Source of the DNA: Candidatus Aminicenantes bacterium
Lineage (GTDB): Bacteria > Acidobacteriota > Aminicenantia > Aminicenantales > JAFGBC01
Direction: 5' to 3'
Assembly (NCBI GenBank): GCA_963702005.1
Contig: OY969696.1
Coordinates: forward strand, 2,272,001-2,336,000
Length of the DNA stretch: 64,000 bases
In this document: positions 2,092-56,156 of the stretch, piece by piece
Position numbering within the stretch: position 1 is the first letter of the stretch
How the letters are laid out: each line of letters begins with the position of its first letter
Program-made: the position numbers and the translations under genes
Notes under the pieces: generated by a model
The model's input: only the letters and a program-made list of their open reading frames with translations
Told to the model about the DNA's origin: nothing
The model's database searches: none

Positions 2092-2865
2092 ATGGACAAG
2101 TTCAAAGAGGTCGAGGATAAGCTTCAGGGCCTCAAGGACCGCCTCCGCCGCCGCGAGATCAGCCAGACCGAGTTCGTCGAAGCTCTGAAGAAACTCCGTC
2201 TCACCGATCAGGAGGGCCGGTTCTGGACCATCGGCGTCAAAACCGGCAAGTGGTATTTCTATAACGGCGCGAAGTGGGTCGAATCCGAGTCGCCCGCCTT
2301 CTCGGAGAAAAGGGCCATCTGCATCTATTGCGGCTTCGAGAACAGTCTTGAAGCGGAATCCTGCGTGCGCTGCGGCGTAGGAATGGGGGAAGCCGATGCC
2401 TTTTGCCCCGCCTGCGGGTTCCGTCTCGACGAGACCTCGGGACTCTGCCCGCGCTGTTCGAGCCAGCCCCTGGAGCGATTCGCGGAACCGGGGCCTTTTA
2501 CGGCCGAGTCCGCGGATGAGGGCGGAACGACCGTCGTCTTCCGGTCCCTATCCCCGGTTTCTTTCCTTCTCTATGCCGGGGTTCTGGGCCTTTTCCTGGG
2601 CATTCTACTCGGCGCGCTGACCGGCGCTACGGCGTCCTTTCCCGATTTCGTCGGCCGCCTGCCCCAATTCTTCATAGACATCCAGGGCAAGATGGTCGGG
2701 ACCTTGATTTATGCCGTGCTGGGGGCCTTCCTCGGGTTCATCGTCGCCGGGATCGTAGGATTTACGACAGCCGTCCTCCTCAACCTGACGTCTTATTTCA
2801 TCGGCGGGTTCAGGATCCGGCTGGCCCCGGTCAAAGGGAAGCCCGGGCGCGGCCGCGGGGCTTGA
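2092..2865 (+). CDS. Double zinc-ribbon domain membrane protein
   Basis: Four CxxC pairs (CIYC, CVRC, CPAC, CPRC) and two C-terminal hydrophobic segments. Confidence 0.75.
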   Translation: MDKFKEVEDKLQGLKDRLRRREISQTEFVEALKKLRLTDQEGRFWTIGVKTGKWYFYNGAKWVESESPAFSEKRAICIYCGFENSLEAESCVRCGVGMGEADAFCPACGFRLDETSGLCPRCSSQPLERFAEPGPFTAESADEGGTTVVFRSLSPVSFLLYAGVLGLFLGILLGALTGATASFPDFVGRLPQFFIDIQGKMVGTLIYAVLGAFLGFIVAGIVGFTTAVLLNLTSYFIGGFRIRLAPVKGKPGRGRGA

Positions 2866-5170
2866 GTTTTCCCGATTTTCCCAACGTAGCCAGGGCATAG
2901 GCCGCCTGTCCCAGCGATAGCGATTCATCGTTGGGAGAATAGTGGACCGAACGCAGGACCTGGAATCCCTTTCGCTCAAGCCCGGCCCTCGTCCTGTCAA
3001 GAAGCTTCCGGTTGAGGAAGACCCCCCCCGCCAATGAGACGACGTCTATCCCGTAAGCCCGGCGGACGCGCTCGGCGGTCTGTACAATAACTCGGGCCAA
3101 GGTGTTATGGAATTTGGAAGCCATGATTTCGACCGGCGTCTTCCGTTCGAGTTCATCAAGAATCTGCCGGAAGAGGGGGGCGAACGAGATCGTCCATGGC
3201 TCCGAGGCGCCGCTCATTGAGAAATCGTAGCGGGTCCTGGTCGGAGAAACGGCCCGGGCTTCGAGCCGCTGGGGAGCCTCGGCCTCATACTCGACCCGGG
3301 CGGGCGCGAGGCCGACCAGGAACGAGACGGCGTCGAAGAGCCGTCCGCAGCTTGAAGTCCTTAGGAAGGGCTTGCCGAGAGAAAGAAGCTTGGCCAGCCG
3401 GTCGATCCGATCCGCTTTGACTTGGGCAAAGGCGCGCGGCAGGCGCTTCCCGATCACCCCGGAGCGATGAAGGTGGGCGAGGGCCATCCGCCAAGGCTCG
3501 CGCGCGGCCAAGTCGCCGCCGGGGAGCGGGACGTACTCGAAATGGGCCAGCCTCCGGTAGGAGCGGTAATCAATGAGCAGGAATTCGCCGCCCCAAGCCT
3601 GGCCGTCGTCGCCGTAGCCGTAGCCGTCAAGGGCGATCCCCAGGGCTCGGCCCTCGAGGTCGACCCGATGTTCGAGGAGCGGGGCCAGGACATGGGCGAA
3701 ATGATGCTGAACCTGGAGATGGGGAATCGCCAGCGAGCGGGCGAAGCGCGTCGTCCGAAAGTCGGGATGAAGGTCGGAGACGACGACATCGGGTTCGATG
3801 GCGAAAAGCCTCTTGAGGTGGGCCAGGGTCTCTTTGAAATAGCCGTAGTTTCGATAGTCGTCGAGGTCGCCCAGGAACTGGCTCGTGACGACGCGTCCGT
3901 TTTTATAGAGCGACACTGTGTCCTTGAGCTCGCCCCCCAAGGCCAGCACTTGGGCGGAACGGGTCAGGCTGTCCGGGACCCGCTGGGGGTAGGGCACATA
4001 GCCCCGGGCGCGCCGGAAAAACAGCGGACCGTCGGCCGCCAGCTTGAGGACCGAATCGTCCGACCTGGTCTCAATGGGCCTGTTGTGATCCAGAATTCGA
4101 TCCGCGAGCCGGCCGACCCCTTCTGAGGCGTCCTTCATGATCGGGGCGTCCTTGGGATTCGAGCTCGTGGCGACGACGAAGGGGATATCGCGGAGAAGGA
4201 GATAGTGGAGGGGCGTAGAGGGCAGCATAATGCCGAGCTCGTCCAGGCCGGGCGCGATCGCCGCGATATCCTTTTTCTTGCGAAGGAGCACGATCGGCCT
4301 TTGGGGTGAGGCCAAGGCCTCCCGCTCGGCCGGTCTCAGGACGGCGTACCGTTCGACGACCGCGAGGTCGGCGGCCATCAGGGCGAGGGGCTTCCGTTGC
4401 CGGGCTTTAATCTTTCTTAGGCGGGCGACGGCGGCCCCGTTCAAGGCGTCGCACATCAGATGAAAGCCGCCCAGTCCCTTGACGGCCAGGACGCGGCCTT
4501 TTTTGAGCCAGGCGGAGGCCGCCTCGATCCCGCCGGCGAGGTCTCTCCCGGCGGCGTCGCGGAGAGTCACTCGCGGTCCGCAGACAGGGCAGGCGATTGG
4601 TTGGGCGTGGTATCTACGGTCGAGCGGGTCCCGGTACTCGCGACGGCAGTCCCCGCACATCCGGAAGGCGGCCATGGTCGTTGCGGGCCGGTCGTAAGGC
4701 AGGGACTTGACGATCGTGTAGCGGGGCCCGCAATCCGTGCAGTTGGCGAAGGGGTAGAGGTGCCTGCGGTCTCCCGGCTTCAGGACTTCCGACAGGCAGG
4801 CGTCGCAGACGGAGATATCGGGAGAGATGAAGACGAACTTCGCGCCGCCGGCCGAGGGTTTGATGCTGAAATCGGCCGGGCCGGCGGGCCGGACCCGGCG
4901 GACGGACACATCTTCGATAAGGGCCAGCGGCGGGAGCTCCTTATGCAGCCGCTCCAGGAATTCGCGGACGGCTGAAGCCCGGCCGCCCTCCAGGTGGATC
5001 TCGACCCCCCGGCCCAGGTTCTTGACCCAACCCTTGAGCCCGAGGCCGACGGCCAGCCTGTAGACGAACGGTCTGAATCCCACGCCCTGGACGACGCCCC
5101 TGGCAAGAGCCCGAACCGCGGACGTTCGGCCGGCCGACGCCGGCCTCGGCCTCGCGTCCTCAGCTCCCAT
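2831..5170 (-). CDS. hypF: Carbamoyltransferase HypF (hydrogenase maturation)
   Basis: GVVQGVGFRPFVY acylphosphatase domain, NCTDCGPRY zinc fingers, VKGLGGFHL, QHHFAH, TSSCGRLFDAV; start placed at ATG 5170 overlapping the queH stop. Confidence 0.95.
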   Translation of the reverse strand: MGAEDARPRPASAGRTSAVRALARGVVQGVGFRPFVYRLAVGLGLKGWVKNLGRGVEIHLEGGRASAVREFLERLHKELPPLALIEDVSVRRVRPAGPADFSIKPSAGGAKFVFISPDISVCDACLSEVLKPGDRRHLYPFANCTDCGPRYTIVKSLPYDRPATTMAAFRMCGDCRREYRDPLDRRYHAQPIACPVCGPRVTLRDAAGRDLAGGIEAASAWLKKGRVLAVKGLGGFHLMCDALNGAAVARLRKIKARQRKPLALMAADLAVVERYAVLRPAEREALASPQRPIVLLRKKKDIAAIAPGLDELGIMLPSTPLHYLLLRDIPFVVATSSNPKDAPIMKDASEGVGRLADRILDHNRPIETRSDDSVLKLAADGPLFFRRARGYVPYPQRVPDSLTRSAQVLALGGELKDTVSLYKNGRVVTSQFLGDLDDYRNYGYFKETLAHLKRLFAIEPDVVVSDLHPDFRTTRFARSLAIPHLQVQHHFAHVLAPLLEHRVDLEGRALGIALDGYGYGDDGQAWGGEFLLIDYRSYRRLAHFEYVPLPGGDLAAREPWRMALAHLHRSGVIGKRLPRAFAQVKADRIDRLAKLLSLGKPFLRTSSCGRLFDAVSFLVGLAPARVEYEAEAPQRLEARAVSPTRTRYDFSMSGASEPWTISFAPLFRQILDELERKTPVEIMASKFHNTLARVIVQTAERVRRAYGIDVVSLAGGVFLNRKLLDRTRAGLERKGFQVLRSVHYSPNDESLSLGQAAYALATLGKSGKLKPRGRARASL

Positions 5171-5728: not shown

Positions 5729-5832
5729 CGGAATTCGGGGGACACATCACTTATTTCACGAATTGTTCTAAGTAATAAGATGAGGGTCCGGCGCGGGGCA
5801 GGGGAATTAAGTCGTGTGTCCCCTGAATTCCG
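5729..5832. repeat. Family A inverted-repeat element, degenerate left arm, ~48-nt spacer
   Basis: CGGAATTCGGGGGACACATCACTTATTT (5729-5756) ... AATTAAGTCGTGTGTCCCCTGAATTCCG (5805-5832). Confidence 0.85.
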
Positions 5833-10366: not shown

Positions 10367-10447
10367 AATAATTCTGGGGACACACGACTTAATTCAGAAA
10401 ATAAATTAGGTATACTCGGAATTAAGTCGTGTGTCCCCAGAATTATT
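10367..10447. repeat. Family A inverted-repeat element, perfect 29-bp arms, 23-nt spacer
   Basis: AATAATTCTGGGGACACACGACTTAATTC (10367-10395) and its exact reverse complement (10419-10447), between convergent genes. Confidence 0.97.
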
Positions 10448-10961: not shown

Positions 10962-11012
10962 GCGGTTAAATTCTTAGTAAAATCATAGTGATTATAGAAT
11001 AAATCAAACTCA

Positions 11013-11258
11013 GGGTCAAACCTGCACTTTATCATTGTGTAGGTTTGACCGAAAAAAAGGTGACAGACATCTATTTACCCAATTTTTCTTTGGTTTAAAT
11101 TCCAGACAACAATTTCTTTATTAGCTGAGCTAATCAGCGTTGATAGCTTCGGATTTAATCTCGGCTTCCCGGCGCCAGGAAATTAGGGAAATAGATGTCT
11201 GTCATTAATTGAATGCCATATTATCGGAATAAGTGACAAAGTGTAGGTTTGACCCCGA
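11013..11258. repeat. Family C inverted-repeat arms enclosing a family B element
   Basis: GGGTCAAACCTGCACTTTATCA 11013-11034; GTGTAGGTTTGACC 11037-11050; AAGTGACAAAGTGTAGGTTTGACCCCGA 11231-11258. Confidence 0.85.
11059..11204. mobile_element. Family B MITE-like element, copy 1
   Basis: GGTGACAGACATCTATTTACCCAATT 11059-11084 and inverted AATTAGGGAAATAGATGTCTGTCA 11181-11204; AT-rich interior. Confidence 0.8.
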
Positions 11259-15558: not shown

Positions 15559-15586
15559 TCGGGGTCAAACCTACACTTTGTCACTT
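15559..15586. repeat. Family C arm
   Basis: TCGGGGTCAAACCTACACTTTGTCACTT is the exact reverse complement of 11231-11258. Confidence 0.9.
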
Positions 15587-15657: not shown

Positions 15658-15726
15658 AATAATTCTGGGGACACACGACTTAATTCACAGGCGCGCGGAA
15701 TTAAGTCGTGTGTCCCCAGAATTATT
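15658..15726. repeat. Family A inverted-repeat element, perfect 29-bp arms, 11-nt spacer
   Basis: Arms 15658-15686 and 15698-15726 identical to the 10367 copy; spacer ACAGGCGCGCG. Confidence 0.97.
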
Positions 15727-19599: not shown

Positions 19600-19627
19600 A
19601 ATTAAGTCGTGTGTCCCCGGAATTATT
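19600..19627. repeat. Family A solo arm
   Basis: AATTAAGTCGTGTGTCCCCGGAATTATT immediately beyond the porB stop. Confidence 0.92.
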
Positions 19628-22556: not shown

Positions 22557-22574
22557 TTCAAACTCCTTTCTAAA

Positions 22575-22643
22575 TAATTCGGGGGACACACGACTTAATT
22601 CCCTCGGCGGCTGTGATAATTAAGTCGTGTGTCCCCCGAATTA
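22575..22643. repeat. Family A inverted-repeat element, perfect 26-bp arms, 17-nt spacer
   Basis: TAATTCGGGGGACACACGACTTAATT 22575-22600 / AATTAAGTCGTGTGTCCCCCGAATTA 22618-22643. Confidence 0.96.
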
Positions 22644-22662
22644 CCTCGACCATGAGTTTTAA

Positions 22663-52008: not shown

Positions 52009-53172
52009 ATGTCCGCGAAGATCCTGATTCTCTGCGCGCGCCTGAATAGGGCCGAGCGAGAAAAGGCGCTTCTAAGCCGATTGCTGGGCGAGCCGCTTGA
52101 TTGGCCCGGCTTGATCCGGAGCGCCGTCGCTGACGGCGTCGCCGTTCTGGCTTATCGGGCCTTTAAAGAATACCAGGACCGCGTCCCGCGCGAAGCCCTC
52201 GAACAACTCAAGGGCTTCTACTACGGCAACGCGGCCCGCTATCTCCGTCTCCGAGCGTCCCTCGGACCGCTTATCCGTGAACTCTCCAGCCGCGGCTTCA
52301 GGTTTGCGTTCACCAAGGGCATCCGGCTGGCCGGGTCCGTTTACGAGGATTTCGCCCTCCGCCCGTTCACGGATATCGATCTCCTCGTCCATCCCCGGGA
52401 CGGCGCCCGGATCGAGGCCGCCCTGGGCGAGCTCGGCTTCAAGCTCGAAGGGGAGGGTGGGGCAGGACTTGCCAAGGAGAAGCAGCTCGTCCTCCGGACC
52501 TACTCGCCCTATTTCCGCAGAGACGAACTCCTCCTCGAAGTCCACTACGACGCCCTCGGCCTTCAGATCCCGCTCGCTTCCGAGGAAGATGTCTGGGCCG
52601 GAGTCCGCGACATCGAGATCGGAGGCTTCCGGATTCCTGTTTTATCGACCGAGGACGAGCTCTGTCATCTCTGCCTCCACGTCATGGAACATTCCTACAG
52701 CCGGCTCATCTGGCTGACCGACATCGCCGAGCTCGTTTCGCGGCACGGCCTGGACTGGGATAAGCTCAAAGCGACCTGCCGGCGCGAGGGCATCGGCGCT
52801 CCGGTCTATTACGGGCTTTTCTTGGCCGATCGGCTCTGGCCCGGTGCCATTCCCCGGGAGGCGCTGGGCGGTTTGCGGCCGGGTCCCGTTCAACGCGGGA
52901 TTCTTGAATTGTTCTGGCCCGTGACGAAGGTCCGCGCCCGCCGTCTCTCCCTCCTATTCCCGTTCTTCATGCCGACCTTTTTCGCGCTCATCGGCCGGAA
53001 GGATCCCGGCCTTCTCATCCGGACGGTCCTTCGCACTCTGTTCCCTCCGCGCGCCTGGGTCGCCCATTACTATGGGACCGGCCTCGGAACCCTGCGGCTC
53101 GCCGGGCATTACCTTTGGCGGATCCAGAGGCCTTTCGTCCTGGTCGCCCGCCGTTTGCTTCGTTTCGGCTGA
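52009..53172 (+). CDS. Nucleotidyltransferase-family protein (NTP_transf_5-like)
   Basis: KGIRLA..Y..RPFTDIDLLV, LEVH, HLCLH, WLTDI. Confidence 0.8.
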   Translation: MSAKILILCARLNRAEREKALLSRLLGEPLDWPGLIRSAVADGVAVLAYRAFKEYQDRVPREALEQLKGFYYGNAARYLRLRASLGPLIRELSSRGFRFAFTKGIRLAGSVYEDFALRPFTDIDLLVHPRDGARIEAALGELGFKLEGEGGAGLAKEKQLVLRTYSPYFRRDELLLEVHYDALGLQIPLASEEDVWAGVRDIEIGGFRIPVLSTEDELCHLCLHVMEHSYSRLIWLTDIAELVSRHGLDWDKLKATCRREGIGAPVYYGLFLADRLWPGAIPREALGGLRPGPVQRGILELFWPVTKVRARRLSLLFPFFMPTFFALIGRKDPGLLIRTVLRTLFPPRAWVAHYYGTGLGTLRLAGHYLWRIQRPFVLVARRLLRFG

Positions 53173-53853: not shown

Positions 53854-54405
53854 ATGATCCGTATCATCAGCGGGACGTATAAAGGCAAGCGGCTCAAGCG
53901 CGTCCCCAGCCCCCTCGTCCGTCCCATGCCGGACAAGCTCAAGGAGTCCCTGTTTAGCATTCTCAAAGAAACGGTCAGGGGAAGGGCTTTCTTGGACGCC
54001 TTCGCCGGGACCGGATCGGTCGGGATCGAGGCTTTGAGCCGGGGGGCGGACAAGGCCGTTTTCATCGAGGAGTATCCCCGGGCCGTCCGCATCATCAAGG
54101 AGAACTTGGCCAAAGTCGGGGCCGAGGATCGGGCCCTGGTCGTGGCGCGGGAGTACAACCGGGCCGTCATCGAGCTGGCCAAGGACGGATTCCTGTTCGA
54201 CCTCGTCTTTCTCGACCCGCCCTACAAGCTTCTCGATGAGCGGGATCCGCTCAAGGTCCTCCGCAAGCGGGGTATCGTCCGGCCGGGCGGAACCGTCATC
54301 CTCAGGCACCATTTCAAGACGAAGCCGCCCCTCGGGGATTTTCCGCTGGTGCGGGCGGTCACCCTCGGCGACGACACCTTGTCGTTTTTCCTGCCCGGCA
54401 AATAA
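53854..54405 (+). CDS. rsmD: 16S rRNA m2G966 methyltransferase RsmD
   Basis: IRIISGTYKG, LDAFAGTGSVGIEALSRGA, FLDPPY; stop lies inside the family A arm. Confidence 0.93.
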   Translation: MIRIISGTYKGKRLKRVPSPLVRPMPDKLKESLFSILKETVRGRAFLDAFAGTGSVGIEALSRGADKAVFIEEYPRAVRIIKENLAKVGAEDRALVVAREYNRAVIELAKDGFLFDLVFLDPPYKLLDERDPLKVLRKRGIVRPGGTVILRHHFKTKPPLGDFPLVRAVTLGDDTLSFFLPGK

Positions 54406-55206
54406 TTCTGGGGACACACGACTTAATTGCCCTTAGGACCCGGCTTTTTCTTAGCGATTATTCGCTCCGTAAGGGCTTCCAACTTACGGATAAAAGCATC
54501 ATCTCCCAAAGGTCTACCCGTTCGAAAATGTTTCCTCAATTCATCATTCTCAGATGGCACTTCTTTTCTAAGAAATGAAGCCCAATCAGAGATCCGTTGT
54601 GTTAGATGAAAATCCGCTAAGATGGGATCTTCTCTTCCGAATATGTGTGAACGGGCGCTTGACCAAGCGTAGTCTTCTGCATACCTAACGATTCCCGCCC
54701 TGACGGGGTTTCTTTCCACATATCGGACAGCTGCATAGAGGTACGGTTCATCGAGTGGACATGAATAGAACCGTCCTTGCCATAAATATCCGTTCCATCC
54801 CTCTCTCTTGTTGATCCTATTTGAATATTCCTGATGGGTTTGACCGATTCCCTGGGCAAGGCTTTTAGGGTTGGAAGGGACGATAATCAAATGTACATGG
54901 TTGTTCATTAGACAAAAAGCCCAGATTTTGATTCCGTTCAATGCGCTCTGTTTTTTCAAGATCTCTAAGTACGCCCCTTTATCATGCTCCGAAAAAAAGG
55001 TTGTTTGCCTACGGTTGCCTCGCTGGACGACATGATGGGGGATGTTTGGGATGACAATGCGGGCCAGCCTAGCCATCGGCGTTCAGAAAAAATCAACTTT
55101 GGTTTTAAATTCTCTCATGATAAAGACGCTTAGAAAAACCAGAAATCATCATGGGATTGCAGCTTCGAGATTCCAAATAATTAAGTCGTGTGTCCCCAGA
55201 ATTATT
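54401..55206. mobile_element. 806-bp element: HUH tyrosine transposase bounded by perfect 28-bp family A terminal inverted repeats
   Basis: AATAATTCTGGGGACACACGACTTAATT 54401-54428 / AATTAAGTCGTGTGTCCCCAGAATTATT 55179-55206; interior AT-richer than host; no target duplication seen. Confidence 0.9.
54423..55076 (-). CDS. Y1 (HUH) tyrosine transposase, RAYT/TnpA-REP-like
   Basis: HHVVQRGN, CLMNNHVHL (HUH), LWQGRF, RYVERNPVRAG (catalytic Tyr region), YAWSS. Confidence 0.93.
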   Translation of the reverse strand: MARLARIVIPNIPHHVVQRGNRRQTTFFSEHDKGAYLEILKKQSALNGIKIWAFCLMNNHVHLIIVPSNPKSLAQGIGQTHQEYSNRINKREGWNGYLWQGRFYSCPLDEPYLYAAVRYVERNPVRAGIVRYAEDYAWSSARSHIFGREDPILADFHLTQRISDWASFLRKEVPSENDELRKHFRTGRPLGDDAFIRKLEALTERIIAKKKPGPKGN

Positions 55207-55280: not shown

Positions 55281-56156
55281 GTGGCAAAAAAGGCAAAGAA
55301 GACGTCTAAGGTGAAGCCGTTCTGGGAGGAAACGCCTCTCGTCGGCGAGACCGAGCTCTTCAGCCACCTGGCTGAGGAGAAGGGGAGCGCTCTGTTCCTG
55401 GGGCGCTATTCGCTGTCCGAAGTCATCGCCGTCCTGGGGAAAAGGAACTTCCTTCGCGAAGCCCGCAAGCGGAAGCTTTGGCCTCTCGCCTTCAACCTGG
55501 ATTCCTCGGCTTACCCTCTTCAGCGTTTCCAGATTTATTATAAAGACAAGACTCCCCGGAATCTCATCGTCGACCTCAAGATCCGGGAAGGCTTGTTTCG
55601 GCCGGCCGGGGGCATCCTCCTGGGCCGGCCTTTCCCCGAGCAGAAATGCCTCATGTTCGAATGGCTGACCCTCCAGAACCCGGTCCAGGACTTCGGTCTT
55701 CAGAAGACCGCCCTGCCCGGTCAGCTTCATCCCGGGCTCAACATCGGGAAGAAGGTCATGGACCTGTTCGTCTACCTGGCCAGGGTCACCGGCAAGGATG
55801 CCCTGATGGCATTCCCGGCCTATTTCCACAACTCGCTTCTTTTCTCGCGCTACTTCACTTTCGTCAATCCGGAGAAGCAGGCCGAGGTCTTGGCCATCCG
55901 GCGGACGTTCCACGACATCCCCTGGAAGCAGCTGGCTTGGATCGTCCATCTCAACTGCCTCCTCCGCCAGGACGGCACGCCCTACGAGTGGAAGGCCGAG
56001 GAACAGATCTTGCCCCTGAGCCGCTTCCTCAAGGATCTGTTTGATTCCCGGGATTATCGGGACGCCGTCCGCAGGGCCCTTCCCGAGTTCCGGTTCACGA
56101 TCGATTGGGAGGCTTTTTACCGTAAATCCTCCGAGATCGGCCCCGCCTCGGATTAG
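55281..56156 (+). CDS. Conserved-looking hypothetical protein
   Basis: GTG start, host codon usage; EWLTLQNP, LPGQLHPGL, PAYFHN motifs; function not assignable. Confidence 0.7.
   Translation: MAKKAKKTSKVKPFWEETPLVGETELFSHLAEEKGSALFLGRYSLSEVIAVLGKRNFLREARKRKLWPLAFNLDSSAYPLQRFQIYYKDKTPRNLIVDLKIREGLFRPAGGILLGRPFPEQKCLMFEWLTLQNPVQDFGLQKTALPGQLHPGLNIGKKVMDLFVYLARVTGKDALMAFPAYFHNSLLFSRYFTFVNPEKQAEVLAIRRTFHDIPWKQLAWIVHLNCLLRQDGTPYEWKAEEQILPLSRFLKDLFDSRDYRDAVRRALPEFRFTIDWEAFYRKSSEIGPASD

Follow-up and report, generated by a model that had tools for sequence, protein, structure and literature searches.

Transposase genes lying between long terminal inverted repeats (TIRs) were described in 2013 by Di Nocera, De Gregorio and Rocco (BMC Genomics 14:522; PMC3733652), who defined TIRtrons, TIRYTs and GTAG/CGTC repeats. 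According to the excerpts of this and the other publications drawn on here, such TIRs share the sequence GGGGWSAS, overlap gene ends and form 'moderately abundant' families that occur as singles, dimers or groups, with cases in the acidobacterium Koribacter versatilis. Quentin et al. 2018 (PMC6006769) equate the TIRYTs of Di Nocera and Group 1 of Bertels with TnpA-Y1 subclass 2.1, whose members have a median length of 238 aa, the motifs NHVH or NH[YF]H, W[EQ], and YIELNP or Y[IV]HLNP, a C-terminal helix-turn-helix (HTH)-like domain (Bac_DnaA_C, HTH_23 or HTH_28), and flanking repeats that share GGGG[AT][CG]A[CG]; the excerpt states that no repetitive extragenic palindromic (REP)-like sequences were found for this subclass. 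Bertels et al. 2017 (PMC5581495) give a mean of 12 genomic copies for the flanking 16-mer of Group 1, and the REPORTH preprint, in its excerpt, limits the association with REPINs to Groups 2 and 3 of the REP-associated tyrosine transposases (RAYTs). Here we analyse an 806-bp unit that holds a Y1 HUH transposase gene between TIRs downstream of rsmD, in a 64-kb stretch of the genome of Candidatus Aminicenantes bacterium (the window; G000:C1:2272001-2336000, part of a 4.31-Mb single contig).

We read the unit as a TIRtron, that is, a resident single-copy TIRYT gene, assigned by its motifs to TnpA-Y1 subclass 2.1 (RAYT Group 1) and framed by its cognate repeats; we put the probability of this reading at about 85%. 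The kind of element is thus known, and the locus is another, well-documented example of it. A match to an already characterised family, which the initial annotation had named as speaking against its own reading, is given at the descriptive level: every published TIRtron feature is present (PMC3733652, as excerpted). Its description as a little-characterised TIR-type HUH element survives in part, since our literature searches, none of them aimed specifically at TIRYT biochemistry, found no report of TIRYT enzymology, but the kind itself had already been described as TIRtron/TIRYT in the excerpts of PMC3733652.

The unit and its transposase

The two arms of the unit are 28 nt long, 100% complementary in a repeat search and separated by 750 nt (Table 1). 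The 28-mer has 9 matches in the window at ≤3 mismatches and 0 matches in 100 of 100 dinucleotide-preserving shuffles, which rules out a chance origin of the arms. The single long open reading frame (ORF) of the unit is the transposase gene; neither tnpB nor any other further ORF lies within the 806 bp. The left arm contains two stop codons, that of the transposase (plus-strand TTA, 54423-54425) and that of rsmD (TAA, 54403-54405), the latter gene being identified by TIGR00095 (142.6 bits; cut-off 117.5). The G+C content is 44.8% in the interior of the unit, compared with 63.1% in rsmD, 59.1% in the downstream gene and 60.4% in the whole genome. Direct repeats are absent from the borders of the unit, where the left flank ends in CCCGGCA and the right flank starts with CCAGGGG. 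GTAG and CGTC are absent from both strands of the arm, and a lone arm, as single-stranded DNA (ssDNA), folds no better than its shuffles (z −1.3 and −1.8). These results uphold the initial account of the unit as a Y1/HUH gene within perfect 28-bp inverted ends, with its stop codon in one arm, an AT-richer interior, no target duplication, and arms that are neither tagged with GTAG/CGTC nor REP-like palindromes.

The protein is a RAYT-type Y1 HUH enzyme with a predicted TnpA_REP-like fold. It matches Pfam Y1_Tnp with 55.2 bits (cut-off 23) and carries the HUH motif as H60-V-H62 and the catalytic tyrosine, Tyr119, within YVERNP. Alignment shows the motifs NNHVH, LWQGRF and YVERNP, and in an alignment of 82 rows, residues H60, H62 and Y119 are invariant. 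The sole solved structure matched by sequence, using a profile of 11 orthologues, is 4ER8, the E. coli TnpA_REP (E-value 6e-6). The AlphaFold2 model computed from the 82-row alignment has a mean predicted local distance difference test score of 92.6, and its best Foldseek match is 4er8_A (E-value 4.6e-9; target template modelling score 0.70), followed by the TnpA proteins of ISDra2, IS608 and IS200. In the model, the C-terminal tail (residues ~140–217) is helical and small. The profile scores, the motifs and the fold match to 4ER8 together corroborate the identification of a RAYT-like Y1/HUH protein between true TIRs.

Compared with the excerpted description of TIRtrons (PMC3733652), the locus has the same organisation: a RAYT-like HUH/Tyr gene lies between long TIRs instead of GTAG palindromes, the 3′ end of the gene runs into one of the TIRs, and further TIR copies are scattered singly and as dimers. 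In both cases the host is an acidobacterium, Koribacter versatilis being one in which the class was also recorded. The arm contains GGGGACAC, which fits the published GGGGWSAS when compared by the quoted motif. With respect to subclass 2.1, as excerpted, the protein shares NHVH, WQ, Y[IV]E.NP and a serine-bearing tail (WSS), although its YVERNP is not an exact fit to the published Y motifs; its length of 217 aa is near the median of 238 aa, and its low copy number and wide, patchy taxonomic spread also agree. A plain IS200 identity was rejected: NCBIfam transpos_IS200 scores only 23.8 bits (cut-off 55), YVERNP stands in place of Y---Q, and there is no second near-identical full copy. Marks of a classical RAYT of Groups 2/3 are also lacking: NCBIfam REP_Tyr_transpos, though it scores higher than transpos_IS200, reaches 61.1 bits (equivalog cut-off 80), and the arm has neither a GT[AG]G foot nor self-structure.

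The dispersed repeats and their relatives

The arm belongs to a repeat family that is dispersed through the genome. A 19-nt core has 94 genomic copies at ≤3 mismatches, 84 of them exact, and a reversed control of the 23-nt version gave 0 genomic matches. The repeats are about 26–29 nt long and share the unit AATTC-N-GGGGACACACGACTTAATT(C), with AAT in front of 38 of the 94 arms. Apart from 20 singlets, among which the two arms of the gene are counted, the copies form 37 inverted doublets, all head-out, with a core-to-core spacing of 3–170 nt. The two arms are identical over 26 nt in 31 of the 37 doublets, and in 4 more they differ solely at the loop-adjacent base; ten variant doublets have the variant in both arms, and two doublets are asymmetric. 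As ssDNA, the doublets are predicted to fold into hairpins of −29.7 to −32.9 kcal/mol (z −11 to −14). Doublet loops of at least 17 nt have no match elsewhere in the genome, the interior of the transposase unit included, except for one 170-nt loop with nested hairpins of minor families; the unique loops thus give no indication that flanks were transduced or that loops derive from the transposase unit. As to the dispersed copies, the initial interpretation held: they are the cognate repeats of the transposase.

The size of this family exceeds what the excerpts give for TIRtrons ('moderately abundant', compared with 94 copies and 37 hairpin doublets) and for Group 1 (an average of 12 copies of the flanking 16-mer, compared with 84 exact 19-nt cores). 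For a TIRYT, the repeat population is unusually large and clean. It also resembles the REPIN–RAYT systems of Groups 2/3, such as E. coli TnpA_REP (4ER8) and the Pseudomonas REPINs: a single-copy gene is flanked by cognate repeats, inverted doublets would form ssDNA hairpins, the two arms show compensatory changes, as excerpted for REPINs from Bertels and Rainey 2011 (PMC3116915), and the closest solved fold is 4ER8. Furthermore, the repeat type follows the gene, and resident repeats appear to change to match the prevailing enzyme, as the REPORTH excerpt describes. In contrast to REPINs, the arm here is non-palindromic and has no GT[AG]G foot, so that a hairpin arises only between two arms; the loops are unique in sequence and 3–170 nt long, and the NCBIfam RAYT score lies below its cut-off. 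A REPIN-like hairpin population in Group 1 runs counter to the statement that limits such populations to Groups 2 and 3.

Arms of the repeat often lie against the stop codons of long open frames. An open frame of 100 codons or more enters from outside at 48 of the 94 arms and stops in or beside the arm, and for 21 of these 48 the stop is a TAA whose T comes from the flank and whose two A's open the repeat. Among the 49 arms with a T in front, 21 thus have such a frame ending at the junction TAA, against a background of 10% for all TAA and 8% for non-repeat TAATT. The abutment of arms on TAA stops may come from target choice or from selection; both fit.

Inverted ends also accompany the gene in other genomes. 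Among 40 related genomes, 29 match the transposase at an E-value ≤0.001, 19 of them at orthologue level (E-value <1e-60). Flanking inverted repeats are clear (score at least 38) at 7 of 11 orthologue loci; at 1 more, the 5′ arm is intact and the 3′ arm is cut. A wider homologue scan was run with an alignment query (a single-protein query gave only four 28%-identical Achromobacter loci) and bore out 592 of 608 candidates. Of the best 80, which were taken further, 4 that the motif filter missed and 8 with flanks too short were dropped, leaving 68 testable loci. The titles of the best 80 name Candidatus Aminicenantes, Omnitrophota, Planctomycetota, Alphaproteobacteria, Thermodesulfobacteriota and others. 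Of the 68 testable loci, 54 are flanked by inverted repeats that score 32 or more; the median score is 41.5, compared with 21 in direct-orientation and shuffled controls.

The consensus end, anchored on GGGGWSAS, is AATT-CC-GGGGACAC-AATACTTAWTT. In strict form and head-out, the end motif occurs upstream at 38, downstream at 33 and on both sides at 27 of 62 loci; in the opposite orientation it occurs at 11 of 62 loci on each side. The 3′ arm overlaps the stop codon in many relatives, as it does at this locus. Conservation of the end sequence across phyla, wherever the gene occurs, points to recognition by the protein rather than to a function in host RNA. Near-identical ends across phyla, together with the abutment on TAA stops and the apparent species-specific rewriting at shared sites described below, are what this locus adds to the TIRtron picture.

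The unit has been inserted into a conserved gene order. In the order to which the organism belongs, rsmD is followed by the downstream gene, rpmE and prfA. Of 13 rsmD loci from other families of the order, 12 have the downstream gene directly after rsmD, the thirteenth stops at a contig end, and none of the 13 has a transposase match. In a sister species (G001), a transposase 62% identical to that of the present genome (G000) occupies the same locus, beside the same divergently oriented downstream gene (82% identical), rpmE (93%) and prfA; the flanks of the locus are ~85% identical, and neighbouring proteins 82–93%. The 12 loci without a transposase and the shared site in G001 together identify the unit as an insertion that predates the divergence of the two species. 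The outer arm in G001 is cut by an insertion sequence (IS) with a DDE transposase, a 439-aa gene (DUF772 + DDE_Tnp_1; G001:C207 locus 2275-3594) lying ~110 nt beyond the break. The query used for rsmD found none in G001 or in a further genome, G002, both of which are fragmented assemblies. A quickly built tree joins the G000 and G001 proteins (SH-aLRT 98) and puts the pair with rows from Omnitrophota and Planctomycetota, outside the main clade that their order forms; its deep branches are weak. This tree position and the low G+C content hint that the transposase gene was horizontally acquired.

Repeat turnover, proposed mechanism and alternatives

The sister species permits a site-by-site comparison of the repeats. 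Nearly all of the 52 repeats of G001 read TC at the place where those of G000 read CG, and the arm flanking the G001 gene is also of the TC type. The repeats at 20 G001 loci were compared with G000: 15 have a repeat at the orthologous position, 4 do not, and 1 is unplaceable; the four G001-only loci sit at larger rearrangements. With the window doublet at 15658 added to the 15, there are 16 shared sites, whose flanks are 76–90% identical; at these, CG is found in 25 of 27 G000 arms and TC in 29 of 30 G001 arms. Loop lengths often differ at shared sites, and partial loop sequence is kept at three, a hint that loops were inherited and then shortened by internal deletion. Hybrids of one CG and one TC arm occur at two G000 doublets, and G001 has a decayed copy at the site of one pristine doublet of G000; these look like sites that were half-converted or missed. 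In G002, which at 83% completeness is too fragmented an assembly for a reading, the transposase was not found, and half of the 10 repeat copies are mutated.

Species-specific arms at shared sites with diverged flanks require a concerted change of the arms. This pattern suggests that arms have been rewritten in situ at inherited sites, as for Pseudomonas REPINs; the excerpt of the REPORTH preprint describes concerted change in Group 3 REPINs of Pseudomonas chlororaphis and holds that RAYTs can modify or replace REPINs. It is conceivable, though on balance doubtful, that the enzyme is a site-specific single-strand recombinase that rewrites resident repeats in place, and less a transposase. If so, Group 1 TIRYTs would run a REPIN-like system of the sort thought limited to Groups 2 and 3, and the near-invariant end, AATTCCGGGGACACAATACTTAATT, found in many phyla, would be a ready-made substrate for work on the mechanism. 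The repeats, the sister species and the conserved end together provide defined oligonucleotide substrates and a natural test of whether such enzymes rewrite repeats in place.

By analogy with IS608 TnpA and TnpA_REP, the following mechanism can be proposed. On ssDNA, the two arms of a doublet would anneal into a 26–29-bp hairpin, as would, less readily, the arms 750 nt apart around the gene. The enzyme would recognise the conserved AATT..GGGGACAC foot sequence-specifically, nick through a 5′-phosphotyrosine link and rejoin the strands, in the manner of IS608 TnpA and E. coli TnpA_REP. Repeats would spread in trans, with a preference for TAA stop codons at the 3′ ends of genes, and resident copies would be overwritten, leaving arms uniform within a genome while their flanks diverge. 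The gene itself would move rarely; it may have entered the site downstream of rsmD before the species split, possibly from a low-GC donor.

Several observations weigh against the TIRtron reading or against parts of this mechanism. The REP_Tyr_transpos score is below the equivalog cut-off, and no Pfam family, HTH included, matches the whole protein or its last 85 residues at an E-value ≤0.01, whereas subclass 2.1 members, in the excerpt of PMC6006769, have Bac_DnaA_C, HTH_23 or HTH_28 tails. Recognition, nicking, strand transfer, mobilisation in trans and rewriting are all ascribed to the enzyme by analogy. In 41 related genomes, counts of the head AATT-N(1,2)-GGKGMCA do not track the presence of the gene: three genomes with no match have 24–61 heads and three with an orthologue have 2–9, figures affected by lineage-specific heads and fragmented assemblies. 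The G001 empty site for the doublet at 22573 lacks ~17 further bases and has ragged borders, and a second candidate empty site, that of the G000 doublet at 52926, is not clean either, G001 having ~56 nt of unrelated sequence there. Targeting of the lagging strand finds no support, the orientation of singlets being unbiased: relative to cumulative GC skew, itself weak, there are 5 plus and 7 minus before the maximum and 2 plus and 4 minus after it. Finally, the concerted change of arms could come about in the absence of the enzyme, through gene conversion of the RecA type or through insertions recurring at hot spots.

A very unlikely alternative is that the unit is an autonomous IS200/IS605-like IS that transposes whole, the gene-less doublets being internal-deletion derivatives similar to miniature inverted-repeat transposable elements. 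The initial annotation had likewise called the unit the autonomous member of its family, and the inserted position of the unit within the order-wide gene order agrees with both. The low-GC interior, the grouping of the protein with Omnitrophota and Planctomycetota (weakly supported) and the head-out orientation of the doublets, which is that of the unit ends, also speak for an IS. With IS200/IS605 elements (IS608 and ISDra2 TnpA) the enzyme shares the Y1 HUH fold and, presumably, the ssDNA chemistry. However, the unit exists as one genomic copy, at the same locus in a species with ~85% identical flanks, and doublet loops of at least 17 nt match nothing else, the unit interior included. In addition, transpos_IS200 stays well below its cut-off, the Y motif ends in NP and not in Q, and the unit has neither subterminal hairpins nor tnpB. 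The single copy, the shared locus and the unrelated loops indicate the behaviour of a resident RAYT, not of an active IS with deletion derivatives; the claim of an autonomous member holds only in part.

About as unlikely is that the enzyme is domesticated and moves nothing, the repeats being host hairpins at mRNA 3′ ends (stabilising or terminating) that are kept uniform by selection and by gene conversion, reportedly an old proposal for REPs made by Higgins in 1988: it accords with arms abutting the stop codons of long frames far above background and with the 15 of 20 sister-species repeat loci common to both species, but arms of 26 nt are short for RecA-type conversion, the variant of the arm changes from one species to the other along with a fast-diverging enzyme (62% compared with 82–93% for its neighbours), the presence or absence of repeats also differs between species, and wherever the gene occurs its ends keep their sequence across phyla.

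Further repeats and neighbouring features

Table 1. Parts of the TIRtron and main-family repeats in the 64-kb window
Feature	Position	Strand	Remarks
Left terminal inverted repeat	54401..54428	+	Head outward; AATTC-N-GGGGACACACGACTTAATT preceded by AAT
TIRYT / RAYT-like Y1 HUH transposase gene, 217 aa	54423..55076	-	HUH motif H60-V-H62; catalytic Tyr119 in YVERNP
Leader, 102 nt, start codon to right arm	55077..55178	-	
Right terminal inverted repeat	55179..55206	-	Head outward; identical to left arm
Gene-less inverted doublet	10367..10447	.	Both arms exact; 25-nt loop; predicted ssDNA hairpin −32.9 kcal/mol
Inverted doublet, 13-nt loop	15658..15726	.	Orthologous doublet in sister species with own variant in both arms
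Singlet, 1 mismatch	19600..19627	-	
Inverted doublet, same T-to-G variant in both arms	22573..22645	.	No repeat at orthologous site in sister species
Hybrid doublet	5732..5829	.	One CG arm and one TC arm; orthologous site in sister species also has a doublet

The transposase gene is present in 1 copy in the genome, and there are two Y1 paralogues with 33% and 31% identity. The former, a 312-aa protein whose gene lies at G000:C1:714067-714690, has its own flanking inverted repeats of 27–43 nt with the head GGGGTCAAACCT. This repeat has 67 genomic copies at ≤4 mismatches, including 20 head-out pairs, and its reversed control gave 0; in the window it occurs at 11012-11034 (+), 11234-11256 (-) and 15561-15583 (+). 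The paralogue and its repeats are a second, independent TIRYT system. With a 67-copy family for the paralogue and a 94-copy family for the main gene, there is one repeat family per enzyme, as described for RAYTs in the excerpt of PMC6006769.

The head AATT-N(1,2)-GGGGACA occurs 140 times in the genome, compared with 0 for its reversal. As this exceeds the 94 core copies, minor families share the head. Specifically, minor hairpin families combine AATTC-N-GGGGACA with another inner sequence (e.g. CGATACCGAATT) and have copies elsewhere in the genome; they are nested, at G000:C1:672351-672520, in the loop of a main-family doublet and also occur 3′ of rsmD in the relative G016. In this genome, no gene cognate to the minor families was identified.

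At G000:C1:1171855-1174099, two inverted singlets of the main repeat bracket a 2.2-kb pair of genes for an ABC-2 permease and an ABC ATPase, and both singlets abut the TAA of a convergent outside gene. In the sister species, the left repeat is present and the outside genes are the same, with ~800 bp of different sequence between them. The gene pair looks like cargo held between two transposase ends.

A G+C-rich hairpin composite of ~130–186 nt, unrelated to the transposase repeat, is highly repeated in both species and is exemplified at G000:C1:1369991-1370177 and at about 35 further places in G001. Matches in G001 are 87–97% identical, and G000 has 86 partial matches with a median identity of 91.5%. 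The 64-kb window has no copy of this composite.

A consensus scan found no promoter-like site on the minus strand of the leader of the transposase gene; its one site lies on the plus strand at the end of rsmD (54379-54406), with 0.9 expected from shuffles. No Rfam family was found in the window. The gene downstream of the unit (55281-56156, +; about 290–320 aa) matches no Pfam or NCBIfam family and lies between rsmD and rpmE–prfA in 12 of the 13 loci. Its ORF as listed begins inside the right arm, and homologues align from about residue 44 on.

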